64,000 nucleotides of DNA from Halarcobacter sp. (GTDB lineage Bacteria > Campylobacterota > Campylobacteria > Campylobacterales > Arcobacteraceae), in assembly GCA_963676565.1 (NCBI GenBank), contig OY781089.1, positions 1,088,001-1,152,000 on the forward strand. Reading direction: 5' to 3'. Position numbers and translations under genes: made by a program. Of the stretch, positions 4,538-39,215 are shown piece after piece (the stretch's first letter is position 1; every line of letters starts with the position of its first letter). The notes beneath the pieces were generated by a model. That model saw only the letters and a list, made by a program, of their open reading frames with translations. It was not told the origin of the DNA and did no database searches.

Positions 4538-5209
4538 ATGCAATTTTCATATCATGAAAATAGTGGCCAAGAAATTTTAGAGATTGAAAATGACTTATAT
4601 AAATATTTAATAAAAGCAAGACGTCATAAAGAAAATGACAAGATTGCTTTTAGAAATTTAAAAGATACAAAAATTTATTTTTATACTTTAGTGGAGATAA
4701 ATAGACGAAATGCTATAGCAAAACTAGTTTCAAGTGAAGAAAAAGTTGTTGAAAATAAACATAAACTACATTTAGTATGGTGTGTAGTTGATCCAAAGAC
4801 TGTAGAAAAATCAATTGCTTCATTAAATGAAATTGGATTAGACAAAATCACTTTTGTATATTGTGAATACTCACAAAAAAATTTTAAATTGAATTTAGAA
4901 AAATTAGAAAAAATATTAATTAATTCTTCTTCTCAATGTGGAAGAAGTTCAATAATTGAGTTAGAGGTTTGTGATAGTATTCAAAAATTTATTGAAACAA
5001 ATGATAATTGTTATCTCTTGGATTTTTCAACTACTTCTGTAGAATCAAAAAAAGATGATATTAAAACAATTATTCTTGGGTGTGAAGGTGGCTTCTCTTC
5101 TGATGAAAGAAAACTTTTTGATGATGATAAAATTGTTGGATTTGATTCTAGTTTAATATTAAGAAGTGAAACTGCAGCTATTTCTTTAGCTTCAAAGATT
5201 TTGATTTAA
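4538..5209 (+). CDS. rsmE: 16S rRNA m3U1498 methyltransferase
   Basis: QCGR, GCEGGFS, ILRSETA motifs. Confidence 0.92.
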   Translation: MQFSYHENSGQEILEIENDLYKYLIKARRHKENDKIAFRNLKDTKIYFYTLVEINRRNAIAKLVSSEEKVVENKHKLHLVWCVVDPKTVEKSIASLNEIGLDKITFVYCEYSQKNFKLNLEKLEKILINSSSQCGRSSIIELEVCDSIQKFIETNDNCYLLDFSTTSVESKKDDIKTIILGCEGGFSSDERKLFDDDKIVGFDSSLILRSETAAISLASKILI

Positions 5210-31123: not shown

Positions 31124-33049
31124 TTACCATGAATAAGATAATCCAGCTCCAATAGTATGTCTTTGATCTCCTGATTTTGCAGCACTAGTTTGAAAAATAA
31201 GATTATCATTTATTCTATATTTAGCACCTAATGCAAAACCATTATATCCATCGTAGTTACCAAAACCTAAGCCTAATGAAAATTTCTTATCAGGTTCAAT
31301 TTGTGGAATATTTGCAATTGCAGTAACACTTGCTATTGCTCCACCTAATTGTCTTAAGTTAACTGCATCAAAATCACTTGTACCATCTGCTACACCATGA
31401 ACTTGAACAGGTTTTCCTGTAGATGCATCACTAAAAGTTGCCCCATTATCATTTAGAGTTAAACTACTTGAAGTAGTACCCCCTGAAATCGTTGTTTGAT
31501 CACTTGTTACAACAATACCATGGGTATTTCCTAAGTCATTTGTTAATGTTAAAGATGCAGAAGCTTCTGTTGACCCACTATTATATAATGCGCCATTTTC
31601 ATCTACATAAGCTCCACCAGTATATGAAATATCCATAGAACCAGATACATTAGAAGAACCGCTACTTACTGTTGTAGTTGCTGCTGTATCTGAAGTATAT
31701 GTTAGTGTACCATTAACATACATATTACCATCAACTAATGTGTCCCCTACAATGATATTATTAACGGTATTACCTGAAACTAAGCCTTGACTTGTTGCGT
31801 CACCATTTATAAGAATATAGTCTGTTCCTGCTGTTTGAGGAGAGCTATACGCAGTAAACCCACTTGTAGTACTAGAAGAGATTGATGCCCTTCCATCTTG
31901 AATAACAATAGAACTATTCCCACCATATATTAGTGTACTACTTGAAGTATTTGTGTTACCAATTGTTGTTGTAGTTGCATTAGCTGTAGTACCAATGTCT
32001 ATTGTTGTACTATTTATTGTTGTTGATGCACTATTGATAGTTGTATCATTTGATGCATTACCAATAGTTGTATCAGCAGTTCCTGTAGTATTTATATTTG
32101 TTGTTCCAAGAATTGTATTAGTTGATGTACTATTACCAATGTTCGTATCGCCACCTGCAATATTTATATTAGTAGTTGTACTTACAATATTATTGGTTGT
32201 ACCTGTTATTGTATTAGTATCACCAGTGATAGTATTAGTTGCGCTACTATTACCAATATTTGTATCCCCACTTGTAGTATTTATATTAGTTGTTGAACCT
32301 TGAATTGTAACACCAGAATTATTTGTAACAATAGAGCTACTTCCAGAAACTATTGAAACAGCACTTGTATTAGATGAGGAACCTATTGTTGTTGCAGCAG
32401 TTCCTGTAGTGTTGATATTTGTTGTTCCTTCTACATTTAGGTTATCTAGGTTTGTTGTTCCATCAACATCTAAATTGCCCGTGGTAGAAATGTTTCCAGT
32501 ATTTGTTATATTTCCATCATTTGAAATACCATCAGTATTTGTCATTCCATCAACATCTAATCCACCTGTCCCAATATCAGCCGTAAGTGCTGACATAGTA
32601 CCTGTAGTTGATATTCCCACAGAGTCTGAAATACCATCAGTATTTGTCATTCCATCAACATCTAATCCACCTGTCCCAATATCAGCCGTAAGTGCAGACA
32701 TAGTACCAGTAGTTGATATTCCTACAGAATCTGATATACCATCAGTTGTAACTTGACCATTAATATCTACATTATCGGTAATATTTACATTTCCAGAAGT
32801 ACTAAGTATGTTACCATTAAGATTTATATTAGTAGAATTAATTGTTGTTAGGGTTAGATTAGAAGCGATTATATAATCATATGAAGAAGTTGCATTATTA
32901 TAATCTTCAACAAAAAATGTTCCAGTATTATCTTGGTTAGAATCAACTTGGATAGTATAATCATCTACTCCACTTGCATCTGCTGCAAAAGTATTTGAAT
33001 AAGCAAATAAAGTAATAATAGCTAATGCCCTTAATGAACTTCTCATCAT
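31124..33049 (-). CDS. YadA-like trimeric autotransporter adhesin
   Basis: Signal peptide, T/N/G/I-rich repeats, neck VADGTSDFDAVNLRQL, C-terminal anchor ending GAGLSYSW. Confidence 0.9.
   Translation of the reverse strand: MMRSSLRALAIITLFAYSNTFAADASGVDDYTIQVDSNQDNTGTFFVEDYNNATSSYDYIIASNLTLTTINSTNINLNGNILSTSGNVNITDNVDINGQVTTDGISDSVGISTTGTMSALTADIGTGGLDVDGMTNTDGISDSVGISTTGTMSALTADIGTGGLDVDGMTNTDGISNDGNITNTGNISTTGNLDVDGTTNLDNLNVEGTTNINTTGTAATTIGSSSNTSAVSIVSGSSSIVTNNSGVTIQGSTTNINTTSGDTNIGNSSATNTITGDTNTITGTTNNIVSTTTNINIAGGDTNIGNSTSTNTILGTTNINTTGTADTTIGNASNDTTINSASTTINSTTIDIGTTANATTTTIGNTNTSSSTLIYGGNSSIVIQDGRASISSSTTSGFTAYSSPQTAGTDYILINGDATSQGLVSGNTVNNIIVGDTLVDGNMYVNGTLTYTSDTAATTTVSSGSSNVSGSMDISYTGGAYVDENGALYNSGSTEASASLTLTNDLGNTHGIVVTSDQTTISGGTTSSSLTLNDNGATFSDASTGKPVQVHGVADGTSDFDAVNLRQLGGAIASVTAIANIPQIEPDKKFSLGLGFGNYDGYNGFALGAKYRINDNLIFQTSAAKSGDQRHTIGAGLSYSW
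32522..32745. repeat. 105-bp tandem repeat (2 copies plus the start of a third) within the adhesin
   Basis: Units begin at 32522, 32627 and 32732; they encode DGISDSVGISTTGTMSALTADIGTGGLDVDGMTNT. Confidence 0.95.
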
Positions 33050-33724: not shown

Positions 33725-35050
33725 ATGAGTATGTTTTGTTATCAATGTGAAATGAGTTCACCAAACGGTTGTGGTTCAAACGGAGCAAATATAGGAGTAT
33801 GTGGTAAAGATGAAAATCTAGCAAGATTGCAAGATATTATGATTTTTGGTTTAAAAGGTTTAAGTGCATACAGAGAACATTTAAATGAATTAAGACCGCA
33901 AGAAACAAAAAATGTTGATGATGTTATGAGTGAGACATTATATTTTACACTTACAAATGTAAATTTTAATTTTGATGATCATATTAATCAACTTATGAAA
34001 GTAGGAAGTGCGGGTGTTGAGGTTATGGATAAATTATCAAATGCACACACCAATAAATTTGGAATTCCATCGCCAGTTAAAGTTACACAAAATAAAGTTG
34101 AAGGTAAAGCAATCTTAGTTTCAGGACACAATCTTGAGATGTTAGAAAAACTTTTAATTGCAACACAAGATAAAGGTATAAATGTATATACGCATTCTGA
34201 AATGTTACCAGCTCATGGATATCCAGAATTAAAAAAATATGAACATCTAAAAGGAAATGTTGGAAAAGCATGGTTTGACCAAGCTCAACTAATGAAAAGG
34301 TTTAATGGAACTTTTGTTGTAAACACAAATTGTATCGTACCTCCAAAATCAAATGCTGATTATGTGGATAGAGTTTTTACATATAAAATAGTTGGAATTG
34401 AAGGTGGAAATCAAATTATGGATGATAATTTTGATGAATTGATTGAGAAAACTTTACAATGTGAAGATACGAATATAGATGATAATCTAAGTTTAGTAAC
34501 AGGACATCACTATAAGACTATTTTAACTTTAGCTCCACAAATTTTAGAAGCTGTAGAAGAGGGAAAAATTAGTCAATTTTTTGTAGTTGCAGGTTGCGAT
34601 GCTCCTGGAAAGGCTGGAAATTATTATAGAGAACTAACTGAAAATCTTCCAAATGATTGTGTAATTATTACATCAAGTTGTGGAAAATTTAGATTTAATG
34701 ACATAGATTTTGGAAATGTTCCAGGAACGCAAATACCTAGATATTTAGATTTAGGTCAATGTAATGATTCAAATGGTGCAGTAGAGATAGCAAAGGCAGT
34801 AAGTTCTGCACTTAATACACCAATAAATGATTTACCTATCTCTATTGTATTATCATGGATGGAACAAAAAGCTGTAATTATTCTTTTAGCTTTATTTAGT
34901 TTAGGTGTTAAAAATATCTATTTAGGACCAAAACCACCACAATTTGTAAATGAAGATATATTTAATTTCCTAGCTCAAACTTTTAATTTACATCTAACGG
35001 GTGATGCAAAAGAGGATTTAGAAAAATTATTGATTAAAAAAATCGCTTAA
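33725..35050 (+). CDS. hcp: Hybrid cluster protein (hydroxylamine reductase)
   Basis: MFCYQCE...C...GVCGK, YTHSEMLPAH, GCD, LGQCNDS, SWMEQKA. Confidence 0.96.
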   Translation: MSMFCYQCEMSSPNGCGSNGANIGVCGKDENLARLQDIMIFGLKGLSAYREHLNELRPQETKNVDDVMSETLYFTLTNVNFNFDDHINQLMKVGSAGVEVMDKLSNAHTNKFGIPSPVKVTQNKVEGKAILVSGHNLEMLEKLLIATQDKGINVYTHSEMLPAHGYPELKKYEHLKGNVGKAWFDQAQLMKRFNGTFVVNTNCIVPPKSNADYVDRVFTYKIVGIEGGNQIMDDNFDELIEKTLQCEDTNIDDNLSLVTGHHYKTILTLAPQILEAVEEGKISQFFVVAGCDAPGKAGNYYRELTENLPNDCVIITSSCGKFRFNDIDFGNVPGTQIPRYLDLGQCNDSNGAVEIAKAVSSALNTPINDLPISIVLSWMEQKAVIILLALFSLGVKNIYLGPKPPQFVNEDIFNFLAQTFNLHLTGDAKEDLEKLLIKKIA

Positions 35051-35117: not shown

Positions 35118-35879
35118 ATGGCAAAAGATAAAAAAGATTTAAATTTAAAAGAAGTGACATTAACCCTTTCAGGTGGTGGGATTAGAACTGCCGCCTCATT
35201 GGGTGTAATTAAGTATTTAGAAGAAAATGATTATGAAGTTAAGATGATATCTGGGACTAGTGGAGGAGCTATTATTGCTTTATTATATGGACATGGTTTT
35301 TCCATAAAAGAGATAGAGGAATTTTTCTTTACAGTAAACAAATGGGATTTGTTCAATTTTAAATTTAGATTTAACTCCATTCTTAGTTTAAATAAAATTG
35401 AAAGAAAACTAAGAGCTTTTATAAAAGATAAAGAACAAAAAATACCAATACAAATATGTGTTACAAATATTGAAATAGGAAAAGCAGAATACCATACAAA
35501 GGGGGATTTGATTAAATCAACTATTGCATCTTGCTCTTTACTTCCTTATTTTTCTTCCATTGAAATAAATGAAAAGTTTTTTGTTGATGGTGGATATAGT
35601 GATAATCTACCAAATAAAAAACTTTATAAGTTAAACTATCCAAATATTAGTGTAAATGTTAATAATCTACCTAAAATTTTTTCTCACAAAAAAGACTCAT
35701 TACACAGAAGATCTCTTTTTATATTAACCCAAAGTGCAATGAAAAGGGCAAAAAAAAGAGCAGATTTTTTTATCAATATTGATAGTATTTCAGAAATAAA
35801 ACTATTTGATTTTAAAAGTTTTGATTTTGTTTTAGAGCAAGGATATATAAAAGCAAAAGAGATACTAAGAAAAAACTAA
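35118..35879 (+). CDS. Patatin-like phospholipase
   Basis: SGGG, GTSGG, DGG. Confidence 0.9.
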   Translation: MAKDKKDLNLKEVTLTLSGGGIRTAASLGVIKYLEENDYEVKMISGTSGGAIIALLYGHGFSIKEIEEFFFTVNKWDLFNFKFRFNSILSLNKIERKLRAFIKDKEQKIPIQICVTNIEIGKAEYHTKGDLIKSTIASCSLLPYFSSIEINEKFFVDGGYSDNLPNKKLYKLNYPNISVNVNNLPKIFSHKKDSLHRRSLFILTQSAMKRAKKRADFFINIDSISEIKLFDFKSFDFVLEQGYIKAKEILRKN

Positions 35880-36026
35880 AAAAATATAGATAAAAAAATC
35901 CAAAAAATTAAAAAGTACAAATCTGGTAAATAAAAAATTTAATAAAATAAAACCCTAAAAAAGCCACTTTATTTTTAAAGGAAAATAAATTAAGAAAATT
36001 TTAAGAAAATAAATTTTTTTTTGATT

Positions 36027-36159
36027 TATAATTTCGCTCACAAAACGATAAAAGTTTAAAGAAACTCTATTATAGCATTTGGCCGTGCAAATTGATTTCT
36101 TTATTTGTTGTACCAAAAGTACGTTTGTATTATTAGTTGTTGACAACTGGAGAATAAAA
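36027..36159 (+). ncRNA. Structured 5' leader, copy 1 (GCA-UUUGGCCG-UGC motif), with its -10 box
   Basis: TATAAT at 36027; 16-nt core 36074-36089 identical to 36996-37011; flanking stem; downstream CCAAA. Confidence 0.55.
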
Positions 36160-36435
36160 ATGTTTAAAAAAATTGCATTATCTGTTTTATTGATTTCAGC
36201 TTTTGCATATGCTCAAGATGAGCAAATGAGTTTAGAAGATAAATACAATGCATGTAGTGAAAGCTATGAACAATGCTTAGTAAAATGTGAAGAATCTAAC
36301 GCAAATGCAGAAGAGTGCGGGGTAAAATGTGAAGACTTATTTTATCAATGTAATGAAAAAGTTGATCAAGAATTAGATGAATCTAGTGAAAAAGTTGATC
36401 AAGAAGTAGTAGAAGAATCAAATAGTAATCAATAA
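36160..36435 (+). CDS. Small secreted acidic protein with six Cys
   Basis: GGAG SD, ATG 36160, signal peptide, C-X6-C-X3-C-X9-C-X3-C-X6-C. Confidence 0.8.
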   Translation: MFKKIALSVLLISAFAYAQDEQMSLEDKYNACSESYEQCLVKCEESNANAEECGVKCEDLFYQCNEKVDQELDESSEKVDQEVVEESNSNQ

Positions 36436-36444
36436 GGTTAATAT

Positions 36445-36867
36445 TTGAAAACAAACATCTATAAAAAACTTGTAAGACAATATTATGAAGAGTTATGGAA
36501 TAAAAAGTCAAAAGCCTTGATTGAAGAGCTTTTTACTGATGATATAGAGTTTCATGGTTCTTTGAATATTGATACAAAGGGAAAAAAAGAGTTTGAAAAT
36601 TATATGGATGCAATATTAAAAGGTATACCTAATTTACACCATGGAATTGAAATTCTTTTAGAGGAAAATGCAACAATTGCTGTAAGAGCTATTTATAATG
36701 GAACTCATAGTGGTAAATTATTCGATTATGAAGCTTCAAATAATAGAATAAAATACAATGGGGCATCTTTTTTTAAATTTAGAGATGAAAAGATTTCAAA
36801 TATTTGGGTTTTAGGAGATCTTGCAACCTTACACAAACAGATTGTAAGTACTAAAAAATCCCAATAA
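36445..36867 (+). CDS. SnoaL-like / ester cyclase family protein
   Basis: LVRQYYEELWN, GTHSG, F.FRDEKI..IW..GD; TTG start. Confidence 0.85.
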   Translation: MKTNIYKKLVRQYYEELWNKKSKALIEELFTDDIEFHGSLNIDTKGKKEFENYMDAILKGIPNLHHGIEILLEENATIAVRAIYNGTHSGKLFDYEASNNRIKYNGASFFKFRDEKISNIWVLGDLATLHKQIVSTKKSQ

Positions 36868-36945
36868 GGTCCCATATAATAGGCCTTTGATAGGTTCTGC
36901 TTATTTTTTAAGTTTTTTTTTAGATTTTTTCTTTTTTTTATAGAT

Positions 36946-37102
36946 TATAATTATGTAATTAAAAGTTAAAATGAGAATTTCTGAAAACCTATCAAAGCAT
37001 TTGGCCGTGCATTTTTTTAAGATTTTCAGAAATTGATGTACCCAAAATTGAGTGTTTTAATACTAACACAATAACCTTAGTTTTTAGTTAATTGGAGTAG
37101 AA
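36946..37102 (+). ncRNA. Structured 5' leader, copy 2 (GCA-UUUGGCCG-UGC motif), with its -10 box
   Basis: TATAAT at 36946; core 36996-37011; 12-bp stem 36976-36987/37023-37034; CCAAA at 37042. Confidence 0.55.
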
Positions 37103-37144
37103 ATGAAAATAGGTTATCTACATATGTTATTTATCAATTTATAG
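37103..37144 (+). CDS. 13-aa upstream ORF MKIGYLHMLFINL
   Basis: GGAG SD at the same relative position as in leader copy 1; stops 8 nt before the ATG at 37153. Confidence 0.4.
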   Translation: MKIGYLHMLFINL

Positions 37145-37152
37145 AGCCTAAG

Positions 37153-37383
37153 ATGGTTACTAGATCTATTGATGATTTAATATCTAACTATATACTTGAT
37201 GAGCCAGTACAAATATTGGTTAATGAAATAACAAATCATATAAAATTTTATAATGATTATGATTCAGCAATTAAATTAATATTAGCAAATAATCTAAATA
37301 TAGAAAATATAGTTAGAAATACAGCACGACTTAAAACGAATCAGATTGTTGAATTAGCGTCAAAGCTAATTTCTATGAGATAA
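37153..37383 (+). CDS. Small hypothetical protein (paralog of 37595..37807)
   Basis: 76-aa ORF; ungapped similarity to the downstream ORF. Confidence 0.7.
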   Translation: MVTRSIDDLISNYILDEPVQILVNEITNHIKFYNDYDSAIKLILANNLNIENIVRNTARLKTNQIVELASKLISMR

Positions 37384-37407
37384 TAAAGATATATTAGGAA
37401 AGGTAAA

Positions 37408-37608
37408 ATGGATTCAATTATTTATGAATTAAGAGCAAACGATATCAAAGAAGATGATATTCAATTTATAATGGAAAAAGTTAAAAATCGAATATCAGAA
37501 CAAAATATTGATATTGAACTTGAAAAATTAGGTTATCCAAAAGTTTTCACAGTTGATTATGATGATTATAGCTATGAATACGATGTGGATGAAGATGATG
37601 AGTTCTAA
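37408..37608 (+). CDS. Small acidic hypothetical protein
   Basis: 66 aa, AAGG SD, D/E/Y-rich tail. Confidence 0.75.
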   Translation: MDSIIYELRANDIKEDDIQFIMEKVKNRISEQNIDIELEKLGYPKVFTVDYDDYSYEYDVDEDDEF

Positions 37609-37807
37609 TACAATAAATAATCTAAACACAAATGAATTGATTCATCAGATACTATATTTAGTTAAATATAAAAAAGATTTTAAACTAGCAGCACAGGTTA
37701 TGAAAGATAATCTAATCTCAATAGAAGATTTGAGTGAAAAAACATTAAAACTTTCACAACTAGAGCTTGCAAAAATAGCTGATGCAATAATTGAGAATAA
37801 AAGATAA
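37595..37807 (+). CDS. Small hypothetical protein (paralog of 37153..37383)
   Basis: Start trimmed to MMSSNT, overlapping the upstream stop. Confidence 0.7.
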   Translation: MMSSNTINNLNTNELIHQILYLVKYKKDFKLAAQVMKDNLISIEDLSEKTLKLSQLELAKIADAIIENKR

Positions 37808-37911
37808 TTTTTATCCACTAATAAAATTTATTTATGTTTGTCTAAGCAAAAATTCTTTACAATTTCTAATGGAAAAAAATTCTCCATTAGAAAAAATAGA
37901 AAGGATATAAG

Positions 37912-38349
37912 ATGACAAATATAGTAGAAAATTTAAAACAATTACAAGCAGATGCACATGCAATGTATGTAAAAGTACACAATTATCATTGGAATATTGA
38001 GGGTATGGACTTTTATCCTGTACACAATCAAACAGAAGAGATTTATACAAAGTTTTCAATGCTTTATGATGACCTTGCAGAAAGAATTTTACAATTAGGT
38101 GCAAAACCATATTTAACTTTATCTGATTTAGTTAATACTACAAAAATAGAAGAGGAATCTAATTCAAGTTTTAGATCTAAAGAGGTTGTAGAAAAAATTG
38201 TAAATGATTACAACTATTTTTTAAGATCATTTAGAGCTTTAAGTGAAATTGCAGGAGAATCAGGAGATAAAACAACTGAAGCTTTTGCAGATGAAAATGT
38301 AGCTAAACTTGAAAAAGATTTATGGATGATTGGAAATATGCTTAAGTAA
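37912..38349 (+). CDS. dps: Dps family DNA-protection ferritin
   Basis: HNYHWNIEG..F..VH, DDLAERI, EKDLWM. Confidence 0.94.
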   Translation: MTNIVENLKQLQADAHAMYVKVHNYHWNIEGMDFYPVHNQTEEIYTKFSMLYDDLAERILQLGAKPYLTLSDLVNTTKIEEESNSSFRSKEVVEKIVNDYNYFLRSFRALSEIAGESGDKTTEAFADENVAKLEKDLWMIGNMLK

Positions 38350-38369
38350 TTTAAGTTTTAAGGATTAGT

Positions 38370-39215
38370 ATGGAAACACTTGAATTTAACAATTATATTG
38401 TAGCTTTCCTACTAACCTTATTTGCAGGACTATCGACAAGTATAGGAGCAGTTATTGCATTTTTTTCAAAAACAAAAACTGAAAAATTCTTATCTTTAGG
38501 ATTGGGTTTTTCAGCTGGTGTTATGATATATGTATCTTTTATGGAGATATTACAAAAATCTGCAGAGTCTTTTACACAATTAGTCTCAAGTGAAGTAAAA
38601 GGTGAATTTCTATCATTGGTTTGCTTTTTTTTAGGTATTGCAATTATTGCAATTATTGATAGACTTATCCCACAAGATGTAAACCCCCATGAACCAAAAT
38701 CAGAAGAGCAGTTAGAAGAGTTAAAACCTGATAATAAAAACAATGTTATATTAGATAGTAGTTTAAAAAGAACAGGTGTTTTTACAGCTTTAGCAATAGG
38801 TATTCATAATTTCCCTGAAGGGTTTGCAACTTTTATTTCCTCTTTAGATAACCTAACCCTTGGTTTAAGTATTGCTTTGGCCATTGCTATTCATAATATT
38901 CCAGAAGGGATGGCAGTCTCTTTACCTATTTATCATGCAACAGGAGATAAGAAAAAGGCATTTTGGTATGCAACTTTTTCTGGCTTTGCCGAACCAATAG
39001 GAGCAGTGATAGGTTTTTTTATATTATTTCCTTTTATGGGTGAGGCTACTTTAGGTGTAACTTTTGGGCTTGTAGCTGGAATTATGATTTATATCTCCTT
39101 TGATGAACTTTTACCTGCAGCTAGAGTTTATGGAAATGCTCATACAACTATTGCTGGTTTAATCTTAGGTATGTTTATCATGGCAATTAGTTTATTAGCA
39201 TTTAAATTTGTTTGA
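38370..39215 (+). CDS. zupT: ZIP family metal transporter
   Basis: HNFPEG, HNIPEG, DELLP. Confidence 0.93.
   Translation: METLEFNNYIVAFLLTLFAGLSTSIGAVIAFFSKTKTEKFLSLGLGFSAGVMIYVSFMEILQKSAESFTQLVSSEVKGEFLSLVCFFLGIAIIAIIDRLIPQDVNPHEPKSEEQLEELKPDNKNNVILDSSLKRTGVFTALAIGIHNFPEGFATFISSLDNLTLGLSIALAIAIHNIPEGMAVSLPIYHATGDKKKAFWYATFSGFAEPIGAVIGFFILFPFMGEATLGVTFGLVAGIMIYISFDELLPAARVYGNAHTTIAGLILGMFIMAISLLAFKFV

Follow-up and report, generated by a model that had tools for sequence, protein, structure and literature searches.

A covarying, modular 5' leader RNA found twice in a gene island of Halarcobacter sp. and in related Arcobacteraceae, with a candidate role in cis regulation

SAM-II and preQ1-II are translational riboswitches that sequester the ribosome binding site (RBS), and fourU and ROSE are RNA thermometers. 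Ribosomal-protein leaders, RAT/BglG-type antiterminator targets and CsrA sites are protein-binding mRNA leaders with a conserved hairpin loop, and the processing stems of rRNA precursors are cut by RNase III. An unnamed candidate, HRC-5, appears in Table S1d of Stav et al. 2019 (PMC6429828) for Arcobacter sp. L (NC_017192.1/945414-946060); the table gives 14 unique examples, taken from Arcobacter and environmental sequences, records the function as unknown and names the downstream gene 'bSCRAP90'. We analysed a 64,000-nucleotide (nt) stretch of Halarcobacter sp. (assembly GCA_963676565.1, contig OY781089.1, positions 1,088,001 to 1,152,000 of the forward strand; hereafter the window), in which the 16-mer AGCATTTGGCCGTGCA occurs on the + strand at 36074-36089 and 36996-37011. 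Judged by comparison with homologous sequences, the leader around it is a real conserved structured RNA fold. We put at roughly 55% the probability that the two copies are the apical hairpins of two paralogous, lineage-specific and modular 5' leader RNAs, acting in cis on the mRNA of a gene island.

The leader folds into a long imperfect stem (P1), a cap (P2) with a near-invariant UUGGCS loop, a UUGKU linker and a hairpin (P3). Covariance model R1 was built from 33 sequences, and R2, a rebuilt model, was used for an alignment of 56 sequences. The initial annotation had proposed a functional structured RNA with pairing kept despite sequence change, and the homologs bear this out: in alignments fitted to the model, 18 of 20 pairs change on both sides among 47 sequences, and 19 of the 20 pairs of P1, P2 and P3 do so among 56. 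Two-sided changes that keep pairing occur, among the 56, at 10/11 pairs of P1 and 6/6 pairs of P3. Paired cells amount to 91.8%, against 74.4% after shuffling (0/500 shuffles reach the observed value) and 31-56% when the partners are slid. The inner pairs of P1 vary as CUGA/UCAG, CUAG/CUAG, CCAG/CUGG and UUGA/UCAA, and P3 varies as GUACUC/GAGUAC, AUGCGC/GUGCAU, GUAUUC/GAAUAC and GUACUU/AAGUAC. P2 stems appear as GCA/UGC, ACA/UGU, AUA/UAU, UCA/UGA, UAA/UUA and UUG/CAA, all around an almost constant loop, UUGGCG or UUGGCC, whose form in the window is UUUGGCCG with a U·G closing pair. The conserved unpaired parts are this apical loop, the linker and the segment after P3. RNAalifold applied to a plain MAFFT alignment found P2 alone, with the 3' arms of P1 misaligned, and a model-based alignment was therefore needed.

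Within the window, direct reading confirmed the 16-mer repeat and the TATAAT hexamers 47 and 50 nt 5' of its copies, which the initial annotation had pointed out. The copies are 922 nt apart. Allowing up to 3 mismatches, no further match to the 16-mer is found in the window (expected 0.12; 1/100 shuffles gave at least two), and its 14-mer core has exactly two exact copies across the genome of 3,340,668 bases, both in the window. The predicted stems are also present: GCA/TGC closes around TTTGGCCG, and the outer stems pair in both copies, TAAAGAAA with TTTCTTTA in copy 1 and AATTTCTGAAAA with TTTTCAGAAATT in copy 2 (P1 arms in Table 1), in agreement with RNAfold, which recovers the nested hairpins for both leaders. 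TGTACC(C)AAAA and, ahead of the ATG, TGGAG were likewise found as described. Single-sequence folding energies are ordinary (copy 1, z = -1.56, with 14/200 shuffles as good; copy 2, z = -0.71, with 40/200), so that the leader sequence alone proves nothing and the weight comes from the relatives. Compared with each other, the two copies share 73% column identity, clustered in the motif, while the flanks outside the helices have diverged.

Two further pairings had been suggested in the initial annotation, and neither survives the comparison with relatives. The first is a pseudoknot between the loop UUUGG and CCAAA; CCAAA occurs at most 45 nt after P1 in 3/56 sequences, namely both window copies and one copy in the closest relative, and any 5-nt complement to the P2 loop within 130 nt occurs in 7/56. 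In relatives, the position of the supposed pseudoknot is taken by the 5' arm and loop of the covarying hairpin P3 (GUACUC...GAGUAC). The second, a CCA/UGG switch with the Shine-Dalgarno (SD) side, is unsupported because its CCA stretch forms the 5' arm and loop of P3 in the family. Thus the structured functional RNA of the initial annotation stands, and its pseudoknot and switch do not.

The 14-mer with at most one mismatch was found at 43 places in 29/184 genomes of the family Arcobacteraceae, compared to 2 places for a reversed-pattern control. Among them, 34 share the leader context, often two per genome on one strand and 0.8-11 kb apart, and the other 9 are chance matches in coding regions. 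R1 matched (E <= 1e-3) in 33 of 151 sampled family genomes and in 8/22 genera, and leader-bearing loci belong to Halarcobacter, Arcobacter, Poseidonibacter and Candidatus Marinarcus. Across the order, 3 of 151 sampled genomes matched; the sole one beyond the family was G302 (Sulfurospirillum arcachonense), which was also the only match among 61 genomes of its own family. A TATAAT promoter always precedes the leader, and the RBS of one gene set always follows it. The first gene 3' of 49 elements is F1 in 31 cases (by script; 33 by eye), F0 in 12 and F3 in 2, with one SnoaL-like gene and one GSH-S-like ATP-grasp ligase gene among the rest. F1 proteins, encoded in 56/184 family genomes, have a signal peptide, six invariant Cys and an acidic tail, and their homologs are 68-119 amino acids (aa) long. 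Scanning 79 loci of SnoaL homologs with the model gave 22 matches in 19 loci; at those of Sulfurimonas, Sulfuricurvum, Sulfurovum and most Aliarcobacter, the leader was not detected by the model.

Transcription was assessed from assembled contigs of three RNA libraries (relatives, 90-97% identity). They cover 36050-36317, from leader 1 into F1, and, over leader 2, 36961-37136 and 36914-37217; none lies over 35950-36049, and depth drops between 36868 and 36918. These contigs run from 5' of the motif into coding sequence and are weak but consistent evidence for an upstream transcription start and for leaders carried on mRNAs. One raw-read RNA run (X24) provides no test because it had 0 reads on the stretch. 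A scan of 35850-37450 for intrinsic terminators gave 0 terminator-like sites; P1 and P3 are A+U-rich.

After P3, the family shows a strongly conserved UUUAUACUAACAAA, a small hairpin with a variable loop and then AGGAGUAUAAAUG, and CAUUUAUACU complements AGUAUAAAUG exactly. In 12/47 leaders, the UUUAUACU region shows perfect complementarity over at least 8 nt to the 16 nt that end with AUG, which holds for 0.8% of 1162 RBS windows in the genome of the window. The duplex energy of the UUUAUACU region with the RBS has z < -1.5 relative to shuffled sequences in 15/47 leaders, and minimum free energy (MFE) folds contain the RBS helix in several genera and a variant form of it in window copy 1. From these predicted pairings we infer that in many relatives UUUAUACU would pair with the spacer and start codon and restrain the start of translation.

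Most leaders also carry (G)UAGAAUAAGGA directly after the -10 hexamer. This 5' box, UAGAAUAAGG, has a complement of at least 11 nt located 347-450 nt downstream in 24/54 leaders, compared to 0/54 for the reversed box. The complement follows the F1 stop codon and precedes the RBS of the next gene (e.g., L035:382-800, L089:430-900 and L100:1470-1900), and in relatives the resulting helix of 9-16 base pairs (bp) encloses the leader and F1. Among 35 distinct box/complement pairs, 83.5% of positions pair, versus 73.1% (standard deviation 1.4) with shuffled partners, and the pair types change at several positions (examples: GUAGAAUAAGG with CCUUAUUCUAC, AAAUAGAAUAAGAAGA with UCUUCUUAUUCUAUUU, CAAAUAAGGG with CCCUUAUUUG, and UGUAGAAUAAGGAU with AUCCUUAUUCUACA). 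The RBS of the next gene often resembles the 5' box (GGAGAAUAAA), and for this reason the complement could pair with either the box or that RBS. Pairing of the box with the UUUAUACU segment was no better than with shuffled sequences (mean z 0.06; 1/42 below -1.5) and was discarded. At loci without F1 and P1-P3, including that of Arcobacter caeni, box and complement stand about 40 nt apart before the same operon. Such a minimal leader before an operon without F1 was seen in A. caeni, Arcobacter sp. s6 and an Aliarcobacter metagenome-assembled genome (L134, L129 and L119, each 4540-4660), with the order box AUAGAAUAAG, small hairpin, perfect complement CUUAUUCUAU and then GGAGAAUAAAUUG.

We favour, at slightly better than even odds, a leader that controls translation and mRNA stability in cis, with the UUGGCS loop as the putative docking site of a trans-acting factor. 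Pairing of the leader's 3' part (UUUAUACU...) with the SD-AUG spacer and the start codon would hold down translation initiation. The apical loop, which is the sole conserved part of the P1-P2 arm, probably docks the trans-acting factor, which would then tune translational control or the stability of the mRNA and seems likelier to be a protein or another RNA than a small molecule. In most relatives, and not in the window, the box at the mRNA 5' end would additionally pair past the first open reading frame (ORF), placing leader and ORF in one long-range domain.

The same helices could instead work without any factor, as an RNA thermometer in which rising temperature melts the helix at the start codon, or as a stability or processing element (5'-end pairing against a 5' exonuclease, or an RNase III site), in which case the loop would matter for folding only. 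We consider this unlikely. The start-codon helix is indeed AU-rich, modules occur independently, and a 5' box held in a 9-16 bp helix is what would be expected for 5'-end protection or double-strand-specific processing. But folding alone hardly accounts for a 6-nt loop that stays near-invariant across genera while its closing pairs covary, RNA thermometers tend to be far simpler, and the long-range helix is absent from the window copies.

The leader is modular in nature, as its variants show. We examined 20 upstream regions of F1, all from genomes without a whole-genome model match; 7 match R2 and 13 do not. Several of the 13 keep the promoter, the box, the UUGGUGUAC linker and P3, and lack P1-P2 or have a different hairpin in its place, and two F1 upstream regions have a P2 with an altered loop, UUGAGA or UUUAGA. 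In two Halarcobacter genomes (L107:6250-6520 and L108:6250-6520), the SnoaL gene is followed by just the UUGGUGUA-P3-UACUAAC half, without P1-P2. Genome G157 carries the hairpin tip, about 35 nt enclosed by the P1 arms, in inverted orientation compared with its congener G158 (L049:5993-6108 (-) and L050:5949-6067 (-)).

Another reading makes the leader a riboswitch for a small molecule or metal ion, with P1-P2-P3 as the aptamer for an island-related ligand and the UUUAUACU/RBS helix as the expression platform. One could think of a metal on which Dps, ZupT or ZntB acts, or of something produced by the ATP-grasp and oxygenase enzymes. A conserved multi-helix leader with covariation, highly conserved unpaired parts (the UUGGCS loop, the UUGKU linker and UUUAUACUAACAAA), pairing at the RBS and start codon as in translational riboswitches, and two copies per genome before linked operons that include Dps, ZIP and CorA/ZntB-like transporter genes would all suit such a mechanism. 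We nevertheless hold it to be quite unlikely. J1/2 and J2/1, the internal loops within the P1-P2 arm, differ from genus to genus in length and sequence, and in one genus extra pairs replace them; this disfavours a small-molecule pocket in this arm, and no conserved junction pocket is visible. In addition, many orthologous leaders lack the P1-P2 arm, the gene set names no ligand, and no Rfam riboswitch matches.

Very improbable, in our assessment, is a double-stranded DNA site, either a GCA-N8-TGC palindromic operator or inverted-repeat recombination sites, for a transcription or DNA-inversion protein. The core sequence is conserved and its arms change symmetrically, like dimeric half-sites; inversion of the G157 tip would be neutral for a symmetric DNA site, and box and complement are, as DNA, inverted repeats flanking about 400 bp. 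Protein-DNA recognition does not, however, explain why the 11 pairs of P1 and the 6 pairs of P3 vary freely yet remain complementary, and GGCC is off-centre in the core, making the 14-mer a poor palindrome beyond 3 bp. The orientation of the element relative to promoter and genes is identical in 56/56 cases, and the element is transcribed, as far as the contigs show. The 5' box was also considered as a genome-wide operator and rejected, with 49 matches of the 11-mer versus 45 for the control in 5 genomes. The chance that the repeat is a coincidence or a functionless, neutral relic of local duplication is negligible: the copies are close together and the short ORF after copy 2 resembles an F1 signal-peptide relic, implying that a duplication happened, but the element is kept across at least 8 genera and Sulfurospirillum with compensatory changes, and the identity of the copies is concentrated in the motif between diverged flanks.

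Several results weigh against a cis-acting leader with a factor-docking loop, which we still prefer. The pair counts lean towards the modelled structure because the alignments were fitted to the model, and the RBS-sequestering helix shows no covariation because both of its strands are conserved. In the window itself, the complement to the RBS is short (4 nt in copy 2 and 5 nt in copy 1), the box is degenerate and its long-range complement is absent, as at 36027-36445, and in two genera the partner of the UUUAUACU segment sits just 5' of the SD instead. The P1-P2 arm is dispensable in some lineages, as it is missing in 13 of the 20 F1 upstream regions, and the inverted tip of G157 makes the RNA loop read CCGCCAAA rather than UUUGGCGG with the operon seemingly intact. 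The RNA evidence consists of assembled contigs, which cannot show ends and may include DNA, and no factor binding the leader was identified.

A more specific form of the preferred reading, which we offer as tentative and doubtful, is an mRNA-embedded module, of a type not described before, in which the 5' box pairs across the F1 ORF (about 400 nt) with a site beside the RBS of the following gene, and the UUGGCS hairpin inside recruits a dedicated factor. Candidates for this factor would be a small protein of the island itself or the GCCA end of a tRNA. If true, such a module would tie together, in one RNA switch, the translation of the secreted Cys-rich peptide, the stability of the mRNA and the expression of the peptide-modifying enzymes encoded downstream (RimK-type ligases, 2-oxoglutarate (2OG) oxygenases and peptidases).

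The other members of the island are SnoaL, RimK-type ligases, an M42-like peptidase, an AstE/AspA-like hydrolase, a Zn_protease domain protein, 2OG-FeII_Oxy_3 and PhyH proteins, a DsbA-like protein and a CorA/ZntB-like transporter, with Dps and a ZIP transporter (ZupT) joining in the lineage of the window. The gap between F1 and the SnoaL gene in the window is 9 nt. F0 is a helical protein of about 76 aa with an AlphaFold model of a 5-helix bundle (predicted local distance difference test score, pLDDT, 80). Its model had no fold match in the PDB at E <= 0.001, the best being a spurious one to 14-3-3, and F0 had no match of at least 0.9 in the ESM Atlas and none in Pfam and NCBIfam. F0 had been considered as the RNA-binding partner of the leader and was dropped, since the fold, Pfam and NCBIfam searches gave no supporting match. 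F3 (37408-37608 in the window, and its homologs) has an Asp/Tyr-rich acidic tail (...KLGYxKIFTVDYDDYD...), and F3 genes adjoin those of RimK-type glutamate ligases, 2OG oxygenases and peptidases. Judging from sequence, a peptide-modification pathway might use F3 proteins as substrates. ORFs beside F3 have Met-rich N-termini that are artefacts of an overlapping GAT-repeat frame. Second-copy leaders without F1 (37103-37144 in the window; L042, L043, L035, L046, L047 and L097) have an F1-type RBS and a hydrophobic ORF of 11-14 codons; these short ORFs (MKIGYLHMLFINL in the window) may be what is left of the F1 signal peptide or may function as upstream ORFs. Further upstream in the window, 31124-33049 (-) encodes a repetitive, Thr/Asn/Gly-rich, putatively secreted protein of 641 aa with a beta-barrel-like C-terminus, and 33725-35050 (+) encodes a protein that we tentatively take, from its Cys-rich N-terminus, to be of the hybrid-cluster (Hcp) type. 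Coordinates of the leaders and of the genes around them are collected in Table 1.

Table 1. Features of the two leaders and adjoining genes in the window (positions counted from its first letter)
Feature	Position	Strand	Basis or remark
-10 hexamer TATAAT, leader copy 1	36027..36032	+	Direct reading; TATAAT-like hexamer at the same place in most homologs
Leader copy 1, short type without UACUAAC	36045..36148	+	R1 67.5 bits, E 9e-8; R2 62.1 bits
P1 5' arm, copy 1 (UAAAGAAA)	36057..36064	+	RNAfold; P1 covaries across the family
P2 hairpin, copy 1: GCA, loop UUUGGCCG, UGC	36075..36088	+	Stem covaries (GC/UA/AU first pair); loop consensus UUGGCS
P1 3' arm, copy 1 (UUUCUUUA)	36096..36103	+	Direct reading, RNAfold
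Conserved linker UUGUU and P3 hairpin GUAC-CAAAA-GUAC, copy 1	36105..36122	+	Contains the CCAAA of the initial annotation
3' module, copy 1: GUUUGUAUU with AAUAAAAAUG around a small hairpin	36123..36162	+	MFE folds; family-wide complementarity
SD GGAG, copy 1	36149-36152	+	
AUG, copy 1	36160-36162	+	
F1, the gene next to copy 1, for a secreted acidic protein of 91 aa with six invariant Cys	36160..36435	+	No Pfam/NCBIfam match
SnoaL-like protein	36445..36867	+	PF07366, E 3.8e-27
-10 hexamer TATAAT, leader copy 2	36946..36951	+	Direct reading
Leader copy 2, long type	36967..37081	+	R1 101.2 bits, E 3e-13; R2 97.5 bits
P1 5' arm, copy 2	36976..36987	+	Direct reading, RNAfold
P2 hairpin, copy 2	36997..37010	+	Direct reading, RNAfold
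P1 3' arm, copy 2	37023..37034	+	Direct reading, RNAfold
Linker GAU and P3, copy 2 (GUACCC / GAGUGU, imperfect)	37035..37055	+	
Conserved single-stranded segment UUUUAAUACUAACAC, copy 2	37056..37069	+	Family consensus UUUAUACUAACAAA
P4 hairpin region, copy 2 (SD GGAG 37094-37097; AUG 37103-37105)	37070..37105	+	
13-codon hydrophobic short ORF (MKIGYLHMLFINL) at the copy 2 RBS	37103..37144	+	
Genes after copy 2	37153..39215	+	F0 37153-37383, F3 37408-37608, F0 paralog to 37807
Dps	37912-38349	+	
ZIP/ZupT	38370-39215	+	

A comparison with Rfam 15 of the kind proposed in the initial annotation (cmscan) returned no family at the gathering threshold in the 64-kb window, and the E-value mode gave just unrelated sub-threshold matches to eukaryotic small nucleolar RNA or microRNA families. 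Nor did Rfam 15 match any of 20 loci that carry homologous leaders (118,916 bases). In the literature searched on riboswitches, small RNAs and transcription starts of Arcobacter and Campylobacterales, no description of the leader motif was found. The leader is therefore new to Rfam and has possibly been noticed already, without a name, as HRC-5. F1 proteins are small, acidic and rich in Cys (68-119 aa), and on these grounds we suspect that HRC-5 may be this leader or a relative of it, a comparison made with its table row, which does not show identity. The name 'bSCRAP90', which found no further mention in the literature searched, by our guess denotes an acidic, Cys-rich small protein of some 90 aa and, if so, would fit the 91-aa F1. 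As a difference, F1 occurs in 0/44 genomes of one large genus of the family, to which Arcobacter sp. L may or may not belong.

The leader is a covariation-supported RNA family missing from Rfam, in a bacterial group with few described regulatory RNAs; if it duplicates HRC-5, the gain is a structure model, a phylogenetic range and a regulon. It marks a coherent and so far unexplained island of RimK/GshB-type ATP-grasp ligases, M42- and AstE-like hydrolases and two 2OG-Fe(II) oxygenases, and it would provide a handle on the signal that switches this island on. It also offers a compact test system, which combines a 6-nt loop, an optional sensor arm, a start-codon helix and long-range 5' pairing.

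Set beside the described systems, the leader shares features with each of them. Like translational riboswitches with RBS sequestration, it is a structured leader directly 5' of the RBS, with a segment that can pair with the spacer and start codon; unlike them, it shows no conserved ligand pocket, the pseudoknot proposed for it is unconserved and its sensor-like arm is optional. A predicted AU-rich helix across the start region is a feature of RNA thermometers as well, whereas this leader is far larger and modular, has conserved loops and leaves the SD mostly unpaired in predicted folds. Long-range pairing of 5' and 3' parts recalls the processing stems of rRNA precursors, as the box in relatives pairs about 350-450 nt downstream with compensatory changes, but here the helix is just 9-16 bp long, encloses a small ORF and is absent from the window copies. 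With protein-binding mRNA leaders it differs in that there is no candidate protein here, the loop is UUGGCS and not the GGA of CsrA sites, there is no terminator and the leader families of Rfam are unmatched. What it has in common with these protein-binding leaders is a helix of variable sequence that presents a near-invariant apical loop and is confined to one regulon.

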